Positions 1 through 11,229 of a DNA stretch of 11,229 nt are shown one piece after another. Location of the stretch: IMG/VR virus record IMGVR_UViG_2778261502_000002, positions 1 to 11,229 of that record; one strand, 5' to 3'. Source of the stretch: a virus (lineage: Duplodnaviria; Heunggongvirae; Uroviricota; Caudoviricetes). The position numbers and the translations under genes were made by a program. The stretch's first letter is position 1. Each line of letters opens with the position of its first letter. The notes under the pieces were generated by a model that worked only from the letters and a program-made list of their open reading frames with translations, was not told the DNA's origin and did no database searches.

Positions 1-84
1 ATGGCGGGTTATTTGTCCTGGTTATTCCCCCGTTGTAAAATCTCTCCTAAACTTAACGGTACGGCACCACACTTCGGGGATGAA

Positions 85-276
85 ATGTTCGCGCTGGTAC
101 TTTTTGTTTGCTACCTGGATGGCGGTTGTGAAGATATTGTTGTGGATGTCTACAACACGGAACAGCAGTGTCTTCATTCTATGAGCGATCAACGGATCCG
201 CCAGGGCGGTTGTTTTCCGATTGAGGATTTTATAGATGGTTTCTGGCGACCTGCGCAGGAGTACGGTGATTTTTAA
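85..276 (+). CDS. yebW: small conserved protein, YebW-like (63 aa)
   Basis: Frame is open from position 1 (track ORF 1..276); the internal ATG at 85 gives a 63-aa product MFALVLFVCYLDGG... Its stop abuts the pphA stop (276/277). Identity is recalled from the K-12 yebW-pphA neighbourhood and not verified. Confidence 0.4.
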   Translation: MFALVLFVCYLDGGCEDIVVDVYNTEQQCLHSMSDQRIRQGGCFPIEDFIDGFWRPAQEYGDF

Positions 277-933
277 TTATTGCAATTGCACAAGAGTCAG
301 TTCGCCCCCAAAGACAGCACCGGTATCAATATAATGCAGGTTGCCAATATCCACGCGATGTCGCAACGGTGTATGACCAAACCAGAAATGATCAGCACCT
401 GTAATTCCCTGCCCTTTTGGGCGTTCACCTAATCGTGAGCGGCTCCACAAGACCTGATGCAAATCAACGTCCTTTTGCCATTCATAAACATCATCTGGAT
501 AATCGGCATGAGCAATAACATGTTTGCCGGTGCGGCTGTGTACTTCAAGAATAAAGGGCAAATGCTGACATTTTTCCAGCGCCGTTTTCGCTTGTTTCTG
601 TTGATTATCTGCCAGCGCAATAAACCAGTCGCCGCCATTCATCAACCACAAAGACATCTGCTGGGATGCCAGCGCATCCATCGCCATCTGTTCATGATTG
701 CCTCTTACCGCACGAACCCAATGTTGTTCCAGTAACTGCAGACAACGTAAACTTTGCGGCCCACGATCGATAACGTCTCCCACTGAGATAAGTAAATCTC
801 GCCACGGATCAAAACGACAATGCCATAATTTGCGGCGCAACTGCTCAAGACAACCGTGTATATCGCCAGAAAGCCAGATATGTCGCCATTGATGACCCGC
901 AATTCTCTGATAAACGGGCGCAGGCTGTTTCAT
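277..933 (-). CDS. pphA: serine/threonine protein phosphatase 1 (lambda-phosphatase-like metallophosphoesterase)
   Basis: The track ORF 277..936 starts at a TTG; the first ATG is at 933, giving 218 aa MKQPAPVYQRIAGHQWRHIW... Metallophosphatase motifs GDIHG, GDVIDRG and GNHE are present. The adjacent SdsR-like fragment favours pphA over pphB. Confidence 0.8.
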   Translation of the reverse strand: MKQPAPVYQRIAGHQWRHIWLSGDIHGCLEQLRRKLWHCRFDPWRDLLISVGDVIDRGPQSLRCLQLLEQHWVRAVRGNHEQMAMDALASQQMSLWLMNGGDWFIALADNQQKQAKTALEKCQHLPFILEVHSRTGKHVIAHADYPDDVYEWQKDVDLHQVLWSRSRLGERPKGQGITGADHFWFGHTPLRHRVDIGNLHYIDTGAVFGGELTLVQLQ

Positions 934-1067
934 CAATATTTTCCTCCCGCGCTAAAGATCACATAATCTTAACAAGAATGTTAAAAAACGCTGGACTCAG
1001 ACAGTAGAGTGTGTGTTATGGTTGACTATAAAGTCAGCGAAGGAAATGCTTCTGGCTTTTAACAGAT

Positions 1068-1100
1068 AAAAAGAGACCGAACACGATTCCTGTTTTCGTC
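1068..1100 (-). ncRNA. sdsR: 3'-terminal fragment of sRNA SdsR (RyeB), terminator arm plus U-tract, probably cut by prophage insertion
   Basis: The minus strand reads ...ACAGGAAUCGUGUUCGGUCUCUUUUU (1093 down to 1068), which matches my recollection of the SdsR 3' end. The partner stem arm at 1092-1100 is degenerate (GACGAAAAC), so the hairpin cannot form. The reference sequence is recalled from memory only. Confidence 0.35.
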
Positions 1101-1397
1101 AACAAACAACAAAATCTTTTAGAATTAATGTGTTAAATAAATTTATGCTCATCTTTTAATCCCTAACACATACCATTACATATTAATACATTCAATTAGT
1201 TACCATTTTTTTCGAGTTTTTTAGAGAAATTTTCGGGAATATTTCAGATCAATCCATGCATACACAAGCAATTCCTGTATTGAATAATTCCGTAGCAATT
1301 ATGTAAAATCACCTCCGGCTGATTTTCATTCAAACTCGCGCTATCGAACGTCCATCAGCCAGCCGTGGCACGTTCTTGCATACGACGTGCTACGGTT

Positions 1398-1535
1398 TCA
1401 TTTATCTCCGACCGGACACTTCTTATACAAAGTCGATACGCCAACATCATAGATGATCGCCACCTTCTGGCGAGAAACTCCTGATGCAATTAGTCGTCCA
1501 GCCTGCGCCCATTGCTCCGGCGTGAGAGTAAGACA
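1398..1535 (-). pseudogene. C-terminal remnant of a Pin/Gin/Hin-family DNA invertase (HTH DNA-binding domain only)
   Basis: Minus-strand translation gives ...LTLTPEQWAQAGRLIASGVSRQKVAIIYDVGVSTLYKKCPVGDK*, closely resembling the Gin/Pin C-terminus as I recall it. The frame is closed by a TGA at 1554-1556, so only about 45 residues survive and there is no catalytic domain. Confidence 0.6.
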
Positions 1536-1610
1536 GTAAACTGTAGAAAAATCTCATTAAACTTAATATAATGATAAGTTACAGAATTATATTTACTGAA
1601 TAATAGATAT

Positions 1611-2156
1611 ATGAACATTAGTGAACTTAAAAACTGTATACACTATGAAGTAATAGGTTATAAACGCCCTTTCTCCTGGCGAAAAGCAATTGTTCGCGCA
1701 ATAAAACACAGAAGATTACGTTATTTATTTTGGTGGCGCATAGCAAAATATCTTTTTGATAAAGGCGGATACCGGCGAAAGGTTGCAGGAAAAATAGAAC
1801 GCTTCATTCTTGATAAATACAATGTAACCGTTCCCTTAACTGTAAATATTGGTAAAGGGTTCGACATATCTTATCTCAATGGCGTTGTTATCGGTCACAA
1901 AGTTACAATAGGTGAAAATTGTTCAATTAAGCCTGGAGTAACTATTGGACTTCGCGGTGAATTTAATGATATGGATATTGTCATAGGAAATAATGTAACC
2001 ATCGGCTGTAACGCCACCATCCTTGGTGGCAAAGTGCATATAGGGAATAATGTAAAAATAGGAGCTCATGCATTGGTACTGCATGACATTCCTGATGACT
2101 CCACATTCATTACTAAATTTCACTCTGAAATTATTTATAACTCATCTCACACATAA
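1611..2156 (+). CDS. hexapeptide-repeat (left-handed beta-helix) O-acetyltransferase, WcaB/CysE-like
   Basis: 181-aa ORF with ATG start and tandem hexapeptide repeats (VIGHKVTIGENCSI, VTIGLRG, IVIGNNVTIGCNATILGG, VHIGNNVKIGAHALV). GC content is visibly lower than the flanking phage genes. The only plus-strand gene inside the tail-fibre locus. Confidence 0.7.
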   Translation: MNISELKNCIHYEVIGYKRPFSWRKAIVRAIKHRRLRYLFWWRIAKYLFDKGGYRRKVAGKIERFILDKYNVTVPLTVNIGKGFDISYLNGVVIGHKVTIGENCSIKPGVTIGLRGEFNDMDIVIGNNVTIGCNATILGGKVHIGNNVKIGAHALVLHDIPDDSTFITKFHSEIIYNSSHT

Positions 2157-2166
2157 TTCCGTTTAA

Positions 2167-2739
2167 TCACAGCTCTGGCCATACGATATCCGGGGCTGTA
2201 TTTATATCAATCCGACTCACTAATACCCGGTATTTTTTCCAGGAAGATAGCATCGAGACTTCTTCATCAGTTGCCATTTCAAAATTAACAGCATCCTGCA
2301 GAATTGTTATGTTATCAGTCGCATCCTGGATTAATCTTGCCTTTTTCTCTTCCGCCTCCCGGATCCGGAACAGTTTTTCTGCTTCTGCATCTTTCACCCA
2401 AGCTGTGCCGTTCCACTTCTGAAACTCCCCATCCGGCGACAACCAGGTGACATTTTCCGGTAATGGGCCAAGTTCAGAAATAAATAACGCGTCGCCGGAA
2501 GCCACGTCATAGACGGTTTTATCCCGATGGTCTTCAACGAGATGCCACGATACCTCATCACTGTTGAAAACAGCCACAAAGCCAGCCGGAATATCTGGCG
2601 GTGCAATATCGGTACTGTTTGCTGGCAGACCTGTATGAGGCGGAATATATGCGTCACCTTCACCAATAAATTCATTAGTTCCGGCCAGCAGATTATAAAT
2701 TTTTATGGTCCGTGCTTGTTCAGTCATTCTGAAATCCAT
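2167..2739 (-). CDS. tail fibre assembly protein (Tfa; lambda Tfa / Mu U family)
   Basis: 190-aa ORF, ATG at 2739 with AGAGGT ribosome-binding site 5 nt upstream. Sequence [41 protein letters not shown]... matches the Tfa family as recalled from K-12 TfaE/TfaR. Confidence 0.85.
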
Positions 2740-2747
2740 GTTTACCT

Positions 2748-3650
2748 CTACTTAATATCAGAGACAGAATATTGTTTATTGAGCGTATGGGTGTGAGCAC
2801 CAATAACGATGCTACTTCCGTGGCTATGTGCGCCAGAGGTGACATTACCTACGGGATTTTCTGGATTAATCCGATGTATATGCGAATCAGGGCGAAACCG
2901 GTTATTAGCCTGATGTTGTATCAGTACATCATCAGCCTGATGTTCAGGATTAATACAGACCTGCCCGGAACGTGAGCAATACGTCCGATAATCGCCGCAT
3001 CCAATATATTTAGTATCCGCATAACGGCAAACAGAATTACCCGGACAGTATGCATATGTGCCAAATACTGCCGACTGGCGAGATTGTGCGTATTCCCAGT
3101 TAATTGATTCTGTTTTTTTATTAAAGTTATCCCAGGCCTGCTTCATCTGGCGGGCAACACTTTCAAACGGCACCTGACCACATCCGGCCCCCATTGCAGG
3201 GAATACCACCGTGGTTATTTTCCTGTCTGTTGTTGCGTTTTTATTGTGCTGAAAGATGGCAAGTAAAGCGGCCCACGTAGCGTTATATACAGCGTCTGTT
3301 CCATCAATTGTCAGCGGAACACGCATTGTTGGCGCATGTACCAGCCAGGGGTGATGATTATGCCCCGTTTCAATCACAAATGCAGAACCTACAGGCTGTT
3401 CGCCTAGATATTCACGAAGAATATGATTCTGAACGCGGGACTGTAACTGAGTACCGAAGAATGCGGTAATGGCGGCATCAACGCCTCCATCCATCAGGCC
3501 GAAACTATTTGCCGCACTTACCATGCAGTCAAATTCTCTGATTGTTTCAAATGGCTTTCCGACAATATTCACATTATCTGCATTTGCGAATACCCGCTTA
3601 AATGCTTCAGCCATTTCTGTTACTGGTGCAGAAAGAATGAGCGTAATCAT
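2748..3650 (-). CDS. macro-domain protein (ADP-ribose-binding/processing fold) with Cys-rich, HxH-containing C-terminal module
   Basis: 300-aa ORF whose ATG (3650-3648) overlaps the fibre gene stop as ATGA, with a GAGG site upstream. The N-terminal ~175 aa carry the macro signature: [18 protein letters not shown] (N-x6-GGVD loop) and [14 protein letters not shown] (second phosphate-binding loop). They align colinearly with YmdB/MacroD as recalled. The C-terminal ~125 aa have 6 Cys and HIH/HSH/HTH motifs. Confidence 0.7.
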
Positions 3651-4762
3651 GCAAGCCTCACAATATAGTTAAATGCGATGTTTTTGACGGTGTTTTCCGC
3701 GTTACCAGCAGCGTTAACGGTGATGGTGTGTCCATGTGAGCCAATTGCAACGGAGTGCGTATGTGCACCAATACCGACAGTATGTGTATGCGCCCCAGCA
3801 CTTGCTGCAGTACCTGATACTGAGTGGGTATGCGCGCCAGCAGAATTCGTTGCACCTAAGTGAGTTTGAGCAGAGTTCGACGAAGCTACTCTACCGGAGC
3901 TAACGTTAGCATTATCCCCCTGAGATATCGGATGCGTATGTGCACCTGCTGAAGCTGCTGTTCCGCTAACGCTATGGGTATGCGCACCAGTGTTATTCGT
4001 AGATTTAGTTCCATAATCAAACGATGATGTGTTTTTTGTCCCTAAATCTGTATTTGAAGCACTGGCGCTGTGGGTGTGCGATTTAATGCCGTCCTGTTCC
4101 AGGCTAAGAACATCACGTCCACTTGCAGGCTTACCTTTGATTGTCCAGCCACGCATATCAGGGATCACGCCTGACGGATAAGCGGCTGCAAGTTTCGGGT
4201 ATGCAGACTTGTCAAAAGTCTGTCCCTGCATCAGAGCATAACCAGATGGAACTGTATCTGATGGCCACGGGATCGGGGCACCTACAGGAAAGGTCGAATT
4301 ATTTTCCAAACCAAGATATTTAAGGACATCAGCAACAGAGCTTTTTGCCAAAATATCTCGCCCAACCTGTGTCAGGTCAGCCAAATTAGCGGTATCTTGA
4401 TTGGTAAAATACGGTAATTTGTTTTCGGATGCTGAAAGATTAGCAAGTGCGGTAAGTATGGCATTAATTCTCTGATAGTTCTTATCTAATGCAGACGACA
4501 TTTTTGCGATAAAGCCGGCCTGATCGCCATCGTCCTGTACATCCAGTCCACTTTCATTTGCTGTATATTGTGCTATTGCAGATGCAATAAAGCTGGCCTG
4601 CCGAATAACCTTATTGACTTGCGCACTGGATGCTTTCCCTGCTGTAAATCCGGATAAAAGCGCAGGCAACGCTTCCCATTCCTCCTGCGACATAACATTG
4701 GCATTTTTACCCGTTGCGAATGCTTTAAAGTCATTTTTTGCCATCAGAGTAATACTCCCCAT
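3647..4762 (-). CDS. side tail fibre protein with HxH-repeat distal domain
   Basis: 371-aa ORF. An alternative ATG at 4744 overlaps the upstream gene stop (TGATG) and may be the true start. The C-terminal third contains seven HxH motifs and a duplicated 19-aa unit [19 protein letters not shown]. Position between baseplate genes and tfa fits a fibre gene. Confidence 0.8.
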
Positions 4763-5424
4763 GCCCCTACATCAAAACCACTGATAAATTCGTTATCCAT
4801 ATCAAAACCAAAAAATTTTGAACCTTCCGATGGGGTTTCCACCGAAGGTGTTTCAATGCCACCCGCCCACACCCCGGCGGCTTTTACTGTGAGATATCCC
4901 TGTTTAATTGCAGCAATTAACTCACGCGATACATCTGAAATATCTGTATCAGGAAAGGCCCAGACCGATATCGTCATGTCCTGGTTATCGACAATCTGCA
5001 TTCGCAGCCCGGATCCTGCTGTCGCCGCGTCAAGAATTGCTGGAAGCGAATCATTCCGTCCGTCCCAGTTATTAATCGCAATCTTCGCTTTAAGGATGAC
5101 ACGATAAGTTTCATCGCTGAGGTACATGTATCCGTAATCAGGATCGTATGGCCCCTGCCATACACCCTGATCATATCCAAGCCCGTCGGTATCCCAGCTG
5201 AAATAGACACCTGAGATAAGCTGGCTGACAACACGACTACGTCCGATCCACAATCCCAGAATGTCAAGTTGCACACCAACCGCGGAGTCAATATCAAATG
5301 CAGTAATCAACCCTCTGGTGGCCGCCGCAACATCAATAAGCGGCCGGGTCATCAGATCAACATGCGCAAGAAATTTAGGTTTGGTGGCGTGGTAGTTCGT
5401 GATTAGTTCGGTGTATTTGCTCAT
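4744..5424 (-). CDS. baseplate protein, Mu gp48 / P2 gpI-like (YmfQ/DUF2313-type)
   Basis: 226-aa ORF whose ATG overlaps the J-like gene stop (ATGA at 5421-5424). Assignment rests on position between the J-like gene and the fibre gene, plus family resemblance. Confidence 0.7.
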
Positions 5425-6620
5425 GACTCCACCGTTATAACGATATTTTCCGGGGTACAGGACGCAGATTCGTTATATCTGATATCAATGTTTGATGACG
5501 ACAAAGCCCCCGGAGATTTACCAATCGTCAGTTCCTGAATATCGTAATAGCGTGCATTCCCGCCACTCACCACGCCAAGATTCGCCGGTGAGTAAATGCG
5601 ACTTAAAAGGACCGAATCACCGATCGTCAGACTATTGATATAGTCGGAAATAGCCTGCTGGATCTGCTGCCCTATCTGTGAGGTATAACCCGTAAAAACT
5701 TTTAATTTAATCCGGGCATAAACAGGCACATCACTGGAACGCGAGAATTTGATTACATGGGGATTGCCGTATTTATCCGGAACCGTAACGGATGTTGTAC
5801 CGTGAGTGGCTGTCCCCTGGCCTTTATTCCCTCTGATAGCCTGAGCAATATCCGTTACATCACCGCCATCCACAATTACAGCAACAGAGTGTGGCGGTAA
5901 CCCGTTACCGTCCTCCGAACCAGTATCGTTTTCATAGAGTTTGTGGCGGGTTACACCGGTAACATTAGAAACAGCACCATCCAGTGCTTCAAATGGGGTT
6001 ATTGATGGCAACGCAACACTTTGCGACTGGCGGATACGTAACTCCGCATCAGTTTCTGCCGGAGTGCCCACAGTAGCCGCAGCAGGATTAGTTACCGAAA
6101 CCCAGCCACGGGTTGGCGTATTAATTTCAGTGATAGTTCCAGCCAGCGCCGCCACTGCACCACTGACGGAACATTTTGCGGTCACCATCACTGTACCATC
6201 CACGCCGACCACCACTGAAGCAGGCAAACGCCATATCACATTATTACTGTCTTTCACGCTGCCATTAATGATGGTTGTTCCGGCAGTTCCTGTAAGAAGC
6301 AAATCAACCGTAGAATTCGTCGCGCCTTTACGTGAAATACCATTTATTTTCACGTTACTGGTCAGTGCAGCCCCATAGCCGGTTGCCGGTGAAAAACAGT
6401 TGTAGACAGTTATCGCCATATTATTGGCATCATGAATCGCCAGCGCCATCAGAGCCACCATCTGGCCGTCTTTGCTGTCCGGTTCGAGGTAGGCATCACT
6501 GCCATAAATCTGCTGAAAATAGCTAATCAGGGTGCTGAGTATCGTCTGATAATCAGGCGCACTGATCCCCTCCGCGGTTACCTTTGCAGATAAACCGAGA
6601 GAATCAAGGTTCAGAGCCAT
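5421..6620 (-). CDS. baseplate J-like protein (Mu gp47 / P2 gpJ / T4 gp6 family)
   Basis: 399-aa ORF, ATG at 6620 overlapping the upstream stop (TAATG). Size and position in the spike / gp25-like / J / I gene order support the call. Confidence 0.75.
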   Translation of the reverse strand: MALNLDSLGLSAKVTAEGISAPDYQTILSTLISYFQQIYGSDAYLEPDSKDGQMVALMALAIHDANNMAITVYNCFSPATGYGAALTSNVKINGISRKGATNSTVDLLLTGTAGTTIINGSVKDSNNVIWRLPASVVVGVDGTVMVTAKCSVSGAVAALAGTITEINTPTRGWVSVTNPAAATVGTPAETDAELRIRQSQSVALPSITPFEALDGAVSNVTGVTRHKLYENDTGSEDGNGLPPHSVAVIVDGGDVTDIAQAIRGNKGQGTATHGTTSVTVPDKYGNPHVIKFSRSSDVPVYARIKLKVFTGYTSQIGQQIQQAISDYINSLTIGDSVLLSRIYSPANLGVVSGGNARYYDIQELTIGKSPGALSSSNIDIRYNESASCTPENIVITVES

Positions 6621-6973
6621 TACGCCTCCGATGTAACAGTCGTTATTCCATAGAGAGTGTCGATTTCAGCGGAAAACATGACACGTCGGGTCGTGGTATC
6701 CACCGTCGTATTGAAAGAGAGGATTGATTTAACGCCCCGCGTTTCGAGGATGCGCTTACGGATCGCCAGGTTGTAGGTTTCCGGCTTCTGCTTACCGAGT
6801 ACGGACTGGATCCACGGAGTCCCCTCGGTGGTGTCGAGAAACCATTGCCCATACCACAATTCGAATCGCGTTTTTACCGCCTGCGCCACGGCCTCCGGTG
6901 AGTTAATCAGCCAGGTGTCATCACCGCTGCCAAAGGTGTAATCGCCATCGGCGTCTTCACGTCTGTATCGCAT
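6620..6973 (-). CDS. small baseplate protein (gpW/gp25-like, Mu gp46 position)
   Basis: 117-aa ORF, ATG at 6973 overlapping the spike gene stop (ATGA). Assigned by size and position between spike and J-like genes; the family call is tentative. Confidence 0.55.
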   Translation of the reverse strand: MRYRREDADGDYTFGSGDDTWLINSPEAVAQAVKTRFELWYGQWFLDTTEGTPWIQSVLGKQKPETYNLAIRKRILETRGVKSILSFNTTVDTTTRRVMFSAEIDTLYGITTVTSEA

Positions 6974-7725
6974 CAGTTTACCCCATCGGTATTGCTTCCA
7001 CCGCGCTGAACACCGCCATGAGTGTGCGTATCATCGATTGGCTTGCCGTTAGCCTTCACGCTACCCAAAAACTCAACAGCACCAGTGATTTTTGAAGCCA
7101 CACCAGAAACAACAGACCCCACCATGCCACCCATCCAGGTTAACAGGCCATGAATGGTTACTTTCTCAGAAAAATCAGCCAGGGGGGCAACCACATCAAG
7201 CCCCCCCGGAGCGACAATTTTAATTTTCCTGGTATCAGGATTAAGCTCAAAATAGGTGCTGCCGTCGTCACTACGCAACTGTGTGGCACTGGTATTAATA
7301 CCGCTAATCTTCCTAGCTTGCGACTGGGGACCGACAATACAAAACGCATCCGATAAATCATGCATTCTGTCATCAACAGGCTCCTGTATCCCGCCGCTCT
7401 GCCACCAGAAATCAATACAACGATCGGCAAAAACGACAAGACACTCATCCCCGGCTTTTACCGGAAAAGTCAACGTACAGCCTCCGCCGCGCGGGAATAC
7501 CACTGGCACATCCACCAGCAGGGGTAATGTCGTCGACTGGTTGATTCCATTTGAGTCCGGCTCATAGCCTTTAATCGCAGGTTGAACAACCACTGTTACC
7601 GTGTCCGGATCAAATGACTGGACGATGCCGGGCATAGAAACACGCAGCGCCGACATGACAGAGCCAGCAAGTCTTACATCGGCCTGTTCTTTGCTACCAA
7701 GTTGAGCGCTTAAAGAAACGGGCAT
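6973..7725 (-). CDS. baseplate spike / assembly protein V-like (Mu gp45 / P2 gpV family)
   Basis: 250-aa ORF, ATG at 7725 with a GGAGA site 7 nt upstream. Contains a GDECLVVFADR segment that fits the gpV N-terminal fold as I recall it. C-terminus GKPIDDTHTHGG has an HxH motif as in metal-loaded spike tips. Confidence 0.7.
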   Translation of the reverse strand: MPVSLSAQLGSKEQADVRLAGSVMSALRVSMPGIVQSFDPDTVTVVVQPAIKGYEPDSNGINQSTTLPLLVDVPVVFPRGGGCTLTFPVKAGDECLVVFADRCIDFWWQSGGIQEPVDDRMHDLSDAFCIVGPQSQARKISGINTSATQLRSDDGSTYFELNPDTRKIKIVAPGGLDVVAPLADFSEKVTIHGLLTWMGGMVGSVVSGVASKITGAVEFLGSVKANGKPIDDTHTHGGVQRGGSNTDGVN

Positions 7726-7744
7726 TCATATGTCTCCAGAAAGT

Positions 7745-7766
7745 AAAAAACCCGCCGGGTGGCGGG
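7745..7766 (-). terminator. rho-independent terminator for minus-strand transcription
   Basis: Perfect 6-bp GC stem CCCGCC/GGCGGG (7751-7756 and 7761-7766) with a 4-nt loop, followed on the minus strand by UUUUUU (7750-7745). Lies 19 nt downstream of the small membrane protein gene stop. Confidence 0.7.
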
Positions 7767-7784
7767 TTCATTATTGAAGTTTCA

Positions 7785-8024
7785 TTACTGCTTGTTTGCT
7801 TCTAACGCTTCAGCTATTCGGCGAAGATACTCATTGTTTTTAAATGAAACCATGATGCACTCAAAGAATATTCGGCAAAATACAGCACATAACAAAAGCA
7901 CTAAAGCGCCAGCAGCCTTCCCATTAACAAACGTTATAATGGCGGCAACAACCAGAAGTAACATTGTGATGCCATACAGAACGTTGATGATTTTTGGAGT
8001 TATTAATTTATCAAATCCGAACAT
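7785..8024 (-). CDS. small membrane protein (79 aa, two predicted TM helices), moron
   Basis: ATG at 8024 with AAGGAA site 9 nt upstream. Two hydrophobic stretches: ITMLLLVVAAIITFV and AAGALVLLLCAVFCRIFF. Low GC. Flanked by its own promoter-like sequence and terminator. Confidence 0.55.
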   Translation of the reverse strand: MFGFDKLITPKIINVLYGITMLLLVVAAIITFVNGKAAGALVLLLCAVFCRIFFECIMVSFKNNEYLRRIAEALEANKQ

Positions 8025-8060
8025 GTGACAAATTCCTTATCGTGAAAGTAGAAGTATCAC

Positions 8061-8088
8061 ATTATAATTACGAGTGATTAATCAACAA
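8061..8088 (-). promoter_or_regulatory. candidate sigma70 promoter (TTGTTG-N16-TATAAT) for the small membrane protein gene
   Basis: On the minus strand, -35 TTGTTG is the complement of 8083-8088 and -10 TATAAT is the complement of 8061-8066, with a 16-nt spacer. It sits about 35 nt upstream of the ATG at 8024. Sequence-only prediction. Confidence 0.35.
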
Positions 8089-8163
8089 TCTTTTTGCATG
8101 GAAAGGAACCGATGATTTTCGGCGCATCCATGCTGTTCTGCAGAAGCTGGACGCCAATGTAAT

Positions 8164-8499
8164 TCACTTCACCTTCCGGCAATCATACGTCCAGAACTCC
8201 CGAGGCTCGTCCATATTTTTGCGGATAACTTCAACGTTGAGGATCGCTTTTTTGTTTCGTTTGATGTAGTCCATACCTAACCAACGTCCAGTATTAGGAT
8301 CAGGTAACATCCATTGCATCATGACATTATCGAAATCGTCTTTTTGTTTCAAAAAGGTCATTTTTTGTGTTTCTGGCTTTTGACCATTGATGTGCATGAG
8401 GCCATCATTACCAGCATCAAAGCGGAATGGTCCGCACTGCGTTGCCGCCGAAACTGTTAACGGCAGGGCCAAGAATAAACAAAAAAATACTTTTTTCAC
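8164..8499 (-). CDS. secreted/periplasmic small protein (111 aa, signal peptide), moron
   Basis: GTG start at 8499 overlapping the hub gene stop (GTGA), with a GGAG site 7 nt upstream. N-terminus MKKVFFCLFLALPLTVSA|ATQ is a typical Sec signal peptide with a VSA cleavage motif. Two Cys in the mature part. No lipobox. Confidence 0.6.
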   Translation of the reverse strand: MKKVFFCLFLALPLTVSAATQCGPFRFDAGNDGLMHINGQKPETQKMTFLKQKDDFDNVMMQWMLPDPNTGRWLGMDYIKRNKKAILNVEVIRKNMDEPREFWTYDCRKVK

Positions 8500-9530
8500 T
8501 CTACATCTCCGACTTTGTCCAAAGTGCCTTTTGCCAATAGTTCTTTGCCACCTTTAGCCAGGCAAAGCAGGTCCATATACCACGCCTGCCCTCGGGTGTC
8601 GCCAGTATAATCAATGCTGCCCACAATGTAATCACCGTCAGTATTAATGCTGGCAGGCTGTGACATGCCTGGCAGACCGTTAACGTAGAGATTACCGTCG
8701 CTTTCAGACTCATCCAGTAGTGCTGGCGATTTCGCTACCTGGTCATTACTCAAAGAGGCACGGTATACAGATGCCTGATCCAGACGAATAAGCCCACCGA
8801 GCTTAATATTTGGATTAATCAGACATCTGACATTTACGCCAGCTCCCATCGTCTGCTGTGGCATACCGATAAGCCCGGTGTTAGCATTCAACACCGTAGC
8901 AACACCAATATATTTATCTTCAGGAACAATATTTACCAGATTATTTTCATACCACCAGTTAGCCTTACACTGCCCTGCGATATGATTCATCAACCTTGAT
9001 GTGTTTTGATAAACAACGCGACCCCGGGGAAATACCGTTTCAGGCATGTCAGGAACTGCGCCGGATTCGATGCCATATGGTTCGAATGATTTCATACCCA
9101 GACTGAAAAGATCTCTGTACTTCCAGCCAGCTGCCACTGTGGTTTTCACACTTGCGTTCAGGTGGCCTTCCCAGCTGTCAATACACTGCAACATGATCCA
9201 ACTGTCTGTGGCATTATCTTTACCAGTGACAGTAAAACGGATATCTCCATTGAATATCATACCAACGTTTTCATCAGGATAATTACCTGCTGCATCCGGT
9301 TGCCCCTTGTATCCGGCAATAACCTGTATACGCGAAAACTCCTTCTGCATAATCCGGTTCTGAGTGGTAGGGGACAGGTTATAAACCTTAAAATTCCCAA
9401 CGAATCCATTGAATATGGTCGCAGGCATTTTCTGAATATTGAAAGTGACTTTAAGCTCAGAAATTTTTATCCCGTCGCCCTTATCATCAACAAGCAATAA
9501 TTCAAAGTGACGCATCCAGTTTTTCGACAT
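8496..9530 (-). CDS. baseplate hub / tail protein (Mu gp44 / P2 gpD-like), putative
   Basis: 344-aa ORF, ATG at 9530 with GGAG site 6 nt upstream. It immediately precedes the spike gene block in Mu-type order. The family call is by position and size only. Confidence 0.55.
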   Translation of the reverse strand: MSKNWMRHFELLLVDDKGDGIKISELKVTFNIQKMPATIFNGFVGNFKVYNLSPTTQNRIMQKEFSRIQVIAGYKGQPDAAGNYPDENVGMIFNGDIRFTVTGKDNATDSWIMLQCIDSWEGHLNASVKTTVAAGWKYRDLFSLGMKSFEPYGIESGAVPDMPETVFPRGRVVYQNTSRLMNHIAGQCKANWWYENNLVNIVPEDKYIGVATVLNANTGLIGMPQQTMGAGVNVRCLINPNIKLGGLIRLDQASVYRASLSNDQVAKSPALLDESESDGNLYVNGLPGMSQPASINTDGDYIVGSIDYTGDTRGQAWYMDLLCLAKGGKELLAKGTLDKVGDVE

Positions 9531-9532
9531 TG

Positions 9533-9835
9533 TTACTCCGTGAAAACATAGAGGTGTGAGAGCGTTCCAAGATCGAATTGCGTCGGATTCTCCTGCCCTG
9601 CCACGTCGCAGAGCACCACCAGAGAAAAACCCAGATCCATATATCGATACTGTGCCAGCAGGTCAGCCCCCGTAATCATCGGTATACCTGATATAATGGC
9701 GGAGCCATTGCTGTCAGCAAGATCCAGAACCCAGTACTCGCCTCGCCAGATGACAGACAGGTGATAAACCGAACCGTTAATTGTGGTGGCAAAAGTCTGA
9801 TTGTCAGCAACCAGTGGGATTTCTACGGCTTTCAT
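9533..9835 (-). CDS. hypothetical phage tail-module protein (100 aa)
   Basis: ATG at 9835 with AAGGTGA site upstream; the stop lies 2 nt before the hub gene start. No family recognised. Confidence 0.5.
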   Translation of the reverse strand: MKAVEIPLVADNQTFATTINGSVYHLSVIWRGEYWVLDLADSNGSAIISGIPMITGADLLAQYRYMDLGFSLVVLCDVAGQENPTQFDLGTLSHLYVFTE

Positions 9836-9838
9836 GAA

Positions 9839-10198
9839 TCACCTTCCCAGAAATAAATTGCTCAAATACCCATCAACAGTGGAGATACCTTCTTGCGCCA
9901 TCTGTGGCAGCGATTTCAGAATGGAATTATTCGGCGGCACCGTTGTTTTGGTGCCTGTATTCTGCACAGCAGACGTTCCGACTCCCTCGGTCATATTGTT
10001 TTTCGGGGCAATGCGAATACCTTTGCGGGTCATATCATCCGGGATAGCATCGACTGCTTCGCCGATGATCCAGGACGAACGATAGGACCATTCCACCAGC
10101 ATGCGGTTACGACTGGTGAAATTAGCCCGGTAGGTGGATGCAGAGTGCTGGTTAGGTGTCTGCATCCCTAATGGGCGACGCAACATACCAGGAAACAT
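9839..10198 (-). CDS. hypothetical protein, possibly the 3' fragment of a truncated upstream tail gene
   Basis: 119-aa ORF. An in-frame stop lies 27 nt upstream of its ATG, and its 5' end overlaps the start of the plus-strand exonuclease-like ORF, so the start context looks non-native. Confidence 0.3.
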   Translation of the reverse strand: MFPGMLRRPLGMQTPNQHSASTYRANFTSRNRMLVEWSYRSSWIIGEAVDAIPDDMTRKGIRIAPKNNMTEGVGTSAVQNTGTKTTVPPNNSILKSLPQMAQEGISTVDGYLSNLFLGR

Positions 10199-11229
10199 TC
10201 GATGAAGAGAATCAGGTTGAAGCTAAGGAAAATGATCCGGAGGAAATGGAAGGCGCTGAACATCCGCACAAGGAGAACGCTGGCAGCAATCCGCATTGCG
10301 ATTGCAGTGATGAAGCTGGTGAAGCGACAGCACCTGTAGAAACTGAAATCATGTGGCCGTCATATTTCGAGCCAGGCCGCTATGAAAACCTCCCGAACGA
10401 GGTTTATCACTCCGCCAACGGAATAAGCAGCACAATGCTGAAGGATGCCCGCATCAGCCTGATGTATTACCACGGACGGCACATTGCCGGAACTATTCCG
10501 GGCGAGGAAAGTGATGCATTGCTGCGTGGGCGGATTATTCACAGCTATGTTCTGGAAACGGATAAATTCGCTGATGAGTATGCCATTCCGGTACCGGTTC
10601 CTGAATATGTGGTTACTACTTCTAACGAACTGATCGCCATCATTAAAAAACACAATGCCAGTCTGCCAGCACCGATGACACCAGAGCAGATGAAAGAGTG
10701 GATCGAAAGCTACAACAGCACTCTTATACAGCCACTGTCGGTAAGTGCCGGGGCCGAAGAAACAGGCATCCTTTACTGTTCGCTTCCGGAGGAATTCCGG
10801 CGTATTCCTGAGGGGGAAAAACACACAGCATCAGCAATGAAAGCCTGTATTAAAGAATACAACGCAAACCTCCCTCCTCTGTTGAAAACCAGTGGATCAC
10901 GGGAGCAACTTCTGGAGCAAATTGAAACTGTAGATCCAGAACTGGCAAAAAAAGAACGTGCTAAATCTTTGCCTTACAACATCAGTGGCACAAAAGAGCA
11001 ATTAACCGAAATCGCACGGAAAATTCGCCCGGAACTGGTGACACTGGAAGACTGGCAAAAACGCCAGCAAGAAGAAAACGCCGGGAAAACGTTTATCAGT
11101 CCGGATATGTATGAACAGGCAAAAAATATTCACGCTGCACTGCAAAACAATACCGATGCAGCAAGGCTACTCAACCACCCGGATCGCAAATCTGAAATCA
11201 GCTATTTCGGGTTTGATGAAGAAACCGGG
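10171..11229 (+). CDS. partial ORF (at least 353 codons, runs off the window end), putative phage exonuclease (RecE/exonuclease VIII-like); 5' end uncertain
   Basis: Long open frame not in the ORF track because it has no stop within the window. An in-frame TAG lies at 10153-10155; candidate starts are ATG 10171, 10246 (GGAGG upstream) and 10351. The product is acidic and K/E-rich. The exonuclease assignment is from weak recollection and needs a search. Confidence 0.45.
   Translation, partial: MGDATYQETFDEENQVEAKENDPEEMEGAEHPHKENAGSNPHCDCSDEAGEATAPVETEIMWPSYFEPGRYENLPNEVYHSANGISSTMLKDARISLMYYHGRHIAGTIPGEESDALLRGRIIHSYVLETDKFADEYAIPVPVPEYVVTTSNELIAIIKKHNASLPAPMTPEQMKEWIESYNSTLIQPLSVSAGAEETGILYCSLPEEFRRIPEGEKHTASAMKACIKEYNANLPPLLKTSGSREQLLEQIETVDPELAKKERAKSLPYNISGTKEQLTEIARKIRPELVTLEDWQKRQQEENAGKTFISPDMYEQAKNIHAALQNNTDAARLLNHPDRKSEISYFGFDEETG

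Follow-up and report, generated by a model that had tools for sequence, protein, structure and literature searches.

The closest described relatives of the locus reported here are the invertible tail-fibre switches of prophage e14 (P segment, invertase PinE) in Escherichia coli K-12, phage P1 (C segment, Cin) and phage Mu (G segment, Gin), the last of which follows the same switch logic, together with the decayed versions of this switch in the cryptic prophages Rac (stfR-tfaR-pinR) and Qin (stfQ-tfaQ-pinQ). In gin, hin and cin, the recombinational enhancer sits in the 5' part of the invertase gene, and we know of no invertible segment left beside pinR or pinQ. PinQ and PinR of Qin and Rac act in trans on the e14 P segment, which lies in another prophage (PMC12529663). 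We analyzed a locus of this kind at positions 1398-2160 of an 11,229-nucleotide stretch of Caudoviricetes DNA (IMG/VR record IMGVR_UViG_2778261502_000002, positions 1 to 11,229; the whole stretch is called the window below), in which a remnant of a Pin-type invertase gene (pin') is followed by a cassette whose single gene, the cargo gene, is convergent with the tail fibre assembly gene tfa. The locus is very probably what is left of a Pin/e14-type invertible tail-fibre switch that is now dead, in a module that was imported ready-made.

The intact state of the locus was found in E. coli E423, where the same prophage occupies the yebW-pphA-ryeA/sdsR site, as in the window. The window matches E423 at 97% identity over positions 1-1514 and at 98% over positions 4584-6978 (blastn), and between these flanks E423 holds pinE in full length, a gp53-like fibre tip in opposite orientation, the fibre gene and a pair of convergent tfa genes. 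Two inverted 26-bp pix-like sites are present there, TTTTCATAAACCTTGGTTTTGGAGAA beside pinE and TTCTCCCAAACCAAGGTTTTCGAGAG within the fibre gene, each scoring 19/20, and the E423 segment is a P segment of the e14 type. The window has the same invertase, the same position at the prophage end and the same tfa/fibre organisation as e14 and E423; unlike them, it has lost the catalytic domain, the enhancer region, the crossover sites and the alternative half, and a foreign cassette stands in their place. The first-pass annotation, made from the window sequence alone, had the cassette occupying the place of the alternative half and the 5' half of the invertase gene. The comparison with E423 bears out this reading, the cassette standing exactly in the place of the alternative half and the 5' two-thirds of the invertase gene, but makes the replacement larger, as it extends over all of 1527-4583 and takes in both crossover sites as well as the fibre tip and tfa of the resident.

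What remains of the invertase gene lies at 1398-1526 on the minus strand and consists of codons 143-184 and the stop codon. When the intact 184-residue PinE of E423 was used as the tblastn query, only residues 143-184 were matched (window positions 1526-1401, 95% identity, E = 2.3e-22); the full-length protein had no second match elsewhere in the 11.2-kb window, and the serine-recombinase catalytic domain (N-terminal, about 140 residues, with the nucleophilic serine) was also absent from it by tblastn. The window thus holds no full-length invertase. The minus-strand frame of 1398-1535 reads ...LTPEQWAQAGRLIASGVSRQKVAIIYDVGVSTLYKKCPVGDK* and ends in a stop codon at 1398-1400. It had been taken to hold about 45 invertase residues, a figure that the alignment reduces to 42: Pin homology stops at 1526, and the deletion endpoint is fixed at 1526/1527. 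The accompanying claim that only the helix-turn-helix (HTH) domain is left was correct, the fragment matching the HTH of Gin (3uj3 residues 143-181, E = 6.8e-11) and that of Hin in a PDB search. Set against the G segment of Mu, the window therefore has the DNA-binding domain only, which aligns to the HTH of Gin, and no gix-like sites. This C-terminal domain is present in pin', yet it is untranslatable for want of a start codon, the frame having none that would give an open reading frame (ORF) of at least 40 residues; pin' is a non-coding scar. The NCBI Prokaryotic Genome Annotation Pipeline (PGAP) calls the same 129 bp a pseudogene in E62, H10407, O177 and RM8082. The Trp147 codon has undergone independent nonsense changes, to TAG in H10407 and to TGA in O177:H21, and the stump is decaying.

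We then searched for crossover sites. The crossover core AAACCNNGGTTT was not found in the window, either exactly or with up to one mismatch, and a 19-mer crossover search allowing 3 mismatches also found nothing there. No match of at least 15/20 to the 26-bp crossover consensus was detected in the window or in the other cargo-bearing chromosomal loci (0.04 expected by chance), while the control search recovered both E423 sites plus one orphan site in a P1-like plasmid. The DNA for PinE residues 1-142, the region of the recombinational enhancer, is absent from the window, although the enhancer itself was not searched for as a motif. A second, oppositely oriented fibre tip and tfa are absent too, the window having one tfa and one fibre gene. 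Pin-family invertases can act in trans on segments within other prophages (PMC12529663). Since no crossover site is left, neither a resident nor a trans-supplied invertase could invert this locus, and its fibre specificity is fixed. Rac and Qin, with tfa genes about 88% identical to that of the window, retain their invertase, whereas in the window the invertase has been destroyed and a cargo gene has been added.

The cassette (1527-2166) has a guanine-plus-cytosine (GC) content of 33.9%, compared with 46-50% in the neighbouring phage genes, and carries one opposite-strand ORF of 181 residues at 1611-2156 (plus strand), in agreement with its first description as an AT-rich cassette with a single gene. 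It opens with a 16-bp junction filler, agtaagacagtaaact (1527-1542), which occurs only in the pin'-type copies of the module. In an alignment of the junctions of six loci, the breakpoint (...ccggcgtgag, then agtaagacagtaaact, then gtagaaa...) was identical in every pin'-bearing copy; the copies in P1-like and P2-like phages diverge to the left of 1543 and share the window sequence only from 1543 rightwards. A conserved leader (1543-1610, plus strand) begins at that point, and within it a sigma-70-like promoter match, TAGAAA-17 nucleotides-TATAAT at 1544-1572, lies 39 nucleotides 5' of the ATG and scored 10/12 in the promoter scan. The hexamers and their spacing are kept in the P1-like copy, and the P2-like copy has a single change in the -10 hexamer (TACAAT); the predicted promoter stands at the left edge of the conserved core.

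At its right end the cassette meets tfa, with the cargo ORF ending at 2156, the tfa stop codon at 2167-2169 and a 10-bp spacer (2157-2166) between the two convergent genes. A terminator scan of this spacer found no terminator-like site, as had been stated earlier, and no terminator of the cargo cassette was found. The cargo-tfa junction is homologous across all six contexts examined. The inverted repeats around the cassette were short pairs at chance level, and on this ground a new invertible promoter or gene element within the cassette was rejected. The cassette is polymorphic at one site, being missing in E423 and present in RM8082. The cassette thus shows both marks of a moron, being polymorphic in its presence among related phages and deviant in base composition.

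Contiguous matches over both cassette junctions were detected in 59 of the 5,426 complete E. coli genomes. The same breakpoint was found in E62, which carries the same prophage type at a different site near yfhH, in RM8082 at the site of the window, and in lambdoid prophages at prfC of enterotoxigenic E. coli H10407 and an O177:H21 strain, so that the module is carried by the myovirus-type prophage of the window, at two chromosomal sites, and by prfC-located lambdoid prophages. About 58 P1-like phage-plasmids, as well as the P2-like phage vB_EcoM-613R2, had diverged cargo and tfa genes (84-89% identical) with no pin remnant. Because the junction is identical in 59 genomes and in lambdoid prophages, the truncation would not have happened in the window prophage, and the module would have been imported ready-made. 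The first-pass annotation had proposed that a cargo insertion destroyed fibre phase variation; the switch is indeed dead, but its truncation, with a junction found in 59 genomes, does not belong to this prophage. We infer that the module, made up of fibre tip, tfa, cargo and pin', passes ready-made between unrelated phages of E. coli.

The ancestral order would have been the one seen in E423, namely pinE, an inverted fibre tip with tfa', and tfa with the fibre gene, with two 26-bp crossover sites. The resident switch would have been replaced through homologous recombination, with one crossover in the 5' region of the fibre gene and another in the 3' end of pin, which would serve as a homology arm. 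In the window only the last 42 pinE codons are left, with the catalytic domain, the enhancer-bearing 5' part and both crossover sites gone, and the gap is filled by the 640-bp, 34%-GC cassette with its conserved promoter-like element and a 181-residue hexapeptide-repeat gene convergent with tfa. The left homology arm includes the pin 3' flank with a hairpin (1326-1397, minus strand), which is common to the lambdoid module copies; left homology begins at 1326 in the comparison with H10407 and O177:H21 and at 1354 in that with E62. We also examined the single-nucleotide polymorphisms (SNPs) in pin' and its flank. Those at 1340-1355 were of the resident (E423) type, and those at 1497-1524 were donor-type in the window as well as in RM8082; positions 1452 and 1475 were donor-type in the window and resident-type in RM8082. 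The change from resident to donor type therefore lies between 1355 and 1452 in the window and between 1475 and 1497 in RM8082. This mosaic is suggestive of import by homologous recombination, with crossover points that would differ between the window and RM8082, and a plausible role of the pin stump is that of a recombination arm.

Three other accounts of the locus were considered. The low-GC cassette might have been inserted into the window prophage itself, deleting the 5' part of pin and the alternative fibre/tfa half, and such a local event is conceivable given that the E423 sister prophage keeps an intact switch at the same site; it is nonetheless improbable, as the prfC lambdoid prophages and a prophage located elsewhere in the chromosome share the breakpoint and the 16-bp filler, the window differs from E423 across all of 1527-4583 with the resident fibre tip and tfa included, and the pin' SNPs near the junction are of the donor type. 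That the HTH fragment might be a functional small regulator, or a piece of an unrelated one, and not an invertase scar has in its favor that a complete HTH domain is encoded and that the 129 bp are conserved across copies. We regard this as very improbable, since the fragment is collinear with the PinE C terminus and its 3' flank, has no start codon, and carries premature stops in two other copies; its 95% identity to PinE residues 143-184 speaks against an origin in an unrelated regulator. An assembly artefact or chimera is hardly credible at all, as 59 complete genomes from independent projects contain these junctions in contiguous sequence. We keep to the reading of a dead Pin/e14-type switch in an imported module. 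The feature is a decayed switch of the Pin/Cin/Gin family plus a moron-type cargo, and is largely ordinary prophage mosaicism. What it adds is modest: a ready-made module that is mobile across phage types, and a cargo that is a mis-annotated, conserved left-handed beta-helix (LbH) protein with an atypical active site. Prophages at this one site form a clean natural series: E423 has the switch intact, RM8082 has it frozen, and the window has it frozen with a macro-domain gene in addition. The series shows both the loss of tail-fibre phase variation and the transfer of specificity modules among unrelated phages, here myovirus-type, lambdoid and P2-like phages and P1-like phage-plasmids.

The same cargo was found at the C segment of P1-like plasmids. 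In about 58 of these, the cin-Sv'-U' side is replaced by a cargo gene 87-89% identical to that of the window and likewise convergent with tfa. A replacement by a 'serine acetyltransferase' has been noted in the P1-like JL22, where its role was called unknown (PMC9603915). The P1-like copies are unlike the window in having no invertase remnant and a different left junction, and no cin remnant was found by tblastn in a P1-like plasmid. In the P1-like plasmid pZ1323CEC0005_1-2, an orphan cix-like site, TTCTCTTAAACCAAGGTATTGGATAA, lies at 9848-9873 inside the S fibre gene, and an ORF-less group II intron fragment (5236-5505; RF02001, 96.9 bits) occupies the place of cin just 5' of the cargo. With no cin and one orphan cix-like site in this plasmid, a Cin switch, too, has lost its far half to the cargo.

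The cargo gene (1611-2156, plus strand) encodes a 181-residue LbH (hexapeptide-repeat) protein of the acyltransferase fold (Pfam Hexapep, 1.1e-13; Hexapep_2 also matched) and belongs to the LbH hexapeptide superfamily. Its first description as an acetyltransferase gene holds for the fold, while the canonical catalytic dyad is absent. The best sequence matches in PDB and NCBIfam were serine acetyltransferase (SAT), CysE and EpsC, with all NCBIfam scores below the cut-offs: 77.9 against 210.65 for TIGR01172 (cysE), 52.8 against 397 for PRK11132, 85.5 against 150 for EpsC, and 59-60 against about 195 for WcaB. The protein also matched phrog_2154 (1e-77), which PHROGs labels as function unknown. 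Its AlphaFold model has four N-terminal helices followed by short beta-strands. Most of the SATase_N domain is missing, and alignment with CysE (1t3d) covers the LbH domain and the final N-terminal-domain helices. In CysE (1t3d; H. influenzae SAT), the catalytic dyad is formed by Asp143 and His158, and serine is bound by Asp92, Asp157, Arg192 and His193. With E. coli CysE as the alignment reference (a sequence identical to 1t3d; positions are given in CysE numbering), all six of these residues proved to be replaced in the cargo (D92P, D143T, D157S, H158Y, R192M and H193D).

Tyr158 was present in 9/9 close relatives of the cargo (52-90% identity), and a sister clade, with members such as a chromosomal gene between copA and cueR in Citrobacter, retains Asp or Glu at position 143 and His158 in 15/15. 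Within the Tyr clade, and not in the sister clade, position 193 is Asp in 8/9 and His in 1/9, a hint at a relocated base. The cargo gene was intact in every copy examined, and its ratio of nonsynonymous to synonymous substitution rates (dN/dS) against the P1-like and P2-like copies was 0.08-0.12 at dS 0.43-0.64, indicating purifying selection. Judged by its residues, the label 'serine acetyltransferase' is wrong, because all six catalytic and serine-binding positions of CysE are replaced. This corrects a widespread annotation, carried by about 1% of the complete E. coli genomes and by many P1-like plasmids with resistance genes. No functional study of the cargo protein was found in the literature, which holds two incidental mentions (PMC9603915, PMC6456863).

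As to what the cargo does, a true SAT, that is, a CysE paralogue boosting cysteine synthesis in the lysogen, would agree with the PGAP name and with SAT, CysE and EpsC being the best PDB and NCBIfam matches. This is very unlikely given that the cysE and EpsC scores are far under the curated cut-offs, that there is no SATase_N domain, and that none of the six catalytic and serine-binding residues of E. coli CysE is kept. The cargo may be either a transferase with a re-wired site, possibly with the Asp at CysE position 193 as base, or an inactive pseudoenzyme. For a pseudoenzyme, in which the trimeric beta-helix would be kept for binding or structure (of coenzyme A, a glycan, or a phage or host protein, for example), speak the coordinated loss of Asp143 and His158, the invariant Tyr and the strong purifying selection. 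Asp or His at position 193, a pattern not found in the sister clade, suggests a relocated base instead, and some LbH transferases, such as the sugar N-acetyltransferases QdtC and WlbB, need no general base at all; we consider a pseudoenzyme rather unlikely. By analogy with prophage-borne surface-modifying genes, we tentatively propose that the cargo is a lysogen-expressed moron which probably modifies an envelope glycan or another small acceptor and so alters the cell surface or phage susceptibility, a reading we find possible though short of even odds. WcaB, EpsC and NeuO of prophage CUS-3 are, like the cargo, small LbH-fold proteins, and the cargo is weakly similar to the EpsC and WcaB profile models. 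neuO is a low-GC gene beside receptor-binding genes, and the cargo resembles it in both respects. Unlike WcaB, EpsC and NeuO, the cargo scores under all family cut-offs, has Tyr in place of the catalytic His, lies outside a polysaccharide cluster and has no phase-variable repeats. If the cargo does alter the cell surface, this would affect phage susceptibility and possibly serology.

A further, rather doubtful extension is that the cargo clade consists of phage-borne LbH proteins without the Asp-His dyad that are nonetheless strongly conserved, travel as one unit with a particular fibre tip and tfa, act as a new kind of fibre-matched receptor-masking or exclusion factor, or as pseudoenzymes, and repeatedly displace switch halves in Pin-type, Cin-type (P1-like) and P2-like phages. 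If so, a phage lineage would trade host-range phase variation for protection of the lysogen, and the pin' stump and tfa would be portable homology arms with which the module overwrites the switches of other phages. A relative 52% identical to the cargo is also convergent with tfa, in a P2-like prophage. A universal linkage of cargo and tfa was rejected, two relatives lying in other contexts and the His-bearing sister clade being chromosomal.

Several points weigh against the reading of an imported module with an expressed, surface-active cargo. The informative SNPs are few, and two sites tell the window from RM8082. The pin truncation may have been brought about by the cassette, or the cassette may have landed in a switch that was already broken. 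The promoter at 1544-1572 and expression of the cargo in the lysogen are predictions, and no Shine-Dalgarno sequence precedes the cargo ATG. None of the PADLOC models matched the cargo, and an AlphaFold2 model of it (pLDDT, the predicted local distance difference test score, 74) had no Foldseek match in PDB at E <= 0.001. A protein that has lost the catalytic dyad could well have a role other than an enzymatic one, and two relatives of the cargo (57-70% identity) are neither beside tfa nor phage-linked. The prophage in the window is itself degraded, as described below, and the fibre specificity may be without a phenotype here.

Next to the cassette, tfa (2167-2739, minus strand) was identified by Pfam Caudo_TAP (PF02413; 1.1e-37, 129.5 bits against a cut-off of 22.1). 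The tail fibre gene (3647-4762, minus strand; Pfam Collar and Phage_fiber) is an uninterrupted ORF of 371 residues. Its distal part (3646-4273) travels with the tfa-cargo module, as determined by blastn against E423 and the P1-like, P2-like and lambdoid copies, and 4584-4762, the N-terminal 59 codons, is the only part in common with the switch-bearing E423 prophage. PGAP describes the fibre as 'incomplete, missing N-terminus' in the two closest relatives, E62 (8294-8938) and RM8082 (10840-11484).

In five other loci tfa adjoins the fibre gene, whereas in the window the two are separated by a clean, independent second insertion of 912 bp (2734-3645, minus strand), which lies in the late operon between the fibre stop and the tfa start. 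This insertion is missing in RM8082, H10407, O177 and the P1-like and P2-like copies, where the fibre stop abuts the tfa start. It carries an ORF of 300 residues (2748-3650, minus strand; Pfam Macro, 2.6e-18), the ATG of which overlaps the fibre stop codon. The ADP-ribose-binding motifs of the macro-domain protein (NSFG...GGVD) look intact, and its C-terminal part of about 100 residues is rich in Cys and His and has fibre-like GAHSHG/GAHTHT motifs. Members of this uncharacterised family abound in prophages of E. coli and Salmonella, where they are labelled 'phage tail protein'.

The left part of the window (1-1098) is E. coli chromosome with yebW and pphA, as shown by homology to prophage-free strains. 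The match of prophage-free genomes stops at about 1098, within the terminal hairpin (1064-1098, unstranded) that is common to the ryeA/sdsR small RNA locus beside pphA, and this hairpin is probably the junction between prophage and chromosome. As chromosomal homology ends there, the prophage lies in the ryeA/sdsR locus next to pphA. Partial Rfam matches to SraC_RyeA and SdsR_RyeB at 1064-1152 were all sub-threshold, and the Rfam scan of the window gave nothing at the gathering threshold, only sub-threshold RyeA/SdsR and CssrB fragments. The CssrB match lies right after the pin stop, where a hairpin (1364-1420, minus strand) matched the 3' end of the family at 30 bits against a gathering score of 76; CssrB, a Shigella small RNA family, may be derived from a pin 3' region. 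Between the chromosomal part and the pin flank, 1099-1325 is a 227-bp segment of 28% GC seen only in prophages at the yebW-pphA site. Its sequence has 25 differences from E423 (about 12% across 1110-1295) and only five from RM8082; it contains several promoter-like matches and no called ORF.

Beyond the chromosomal part, the window carries genes for the baseplate and fibre of a prophage with a contractile tail (DUF2612, baseplate J, gp25-like and spike by Pfam). Sheath, tube and tape-measure genes are missing from the window prophage, which is therefore a degraded mosaic. An N-terminal fragment of a portal-like gene (9839-10198, minus strand) abuts the baseplate genes, and beyond it a RecE/DUF3799-like ORF runs from 10351 to the window end at 11229 (plus strand). 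Two small non-structural ORFs lie within the baseplate operon (7785-8024 and 8164-8499, minus strand). One of them encodes a DUF4282 membrane protein, the surrounding segment (7734-8152) being 99% identical to E423, E62 and RM8082; the other encodes 111 residues with a hydrophobic, signal-peptide-like start and no family match. Both may be further cargo genes.

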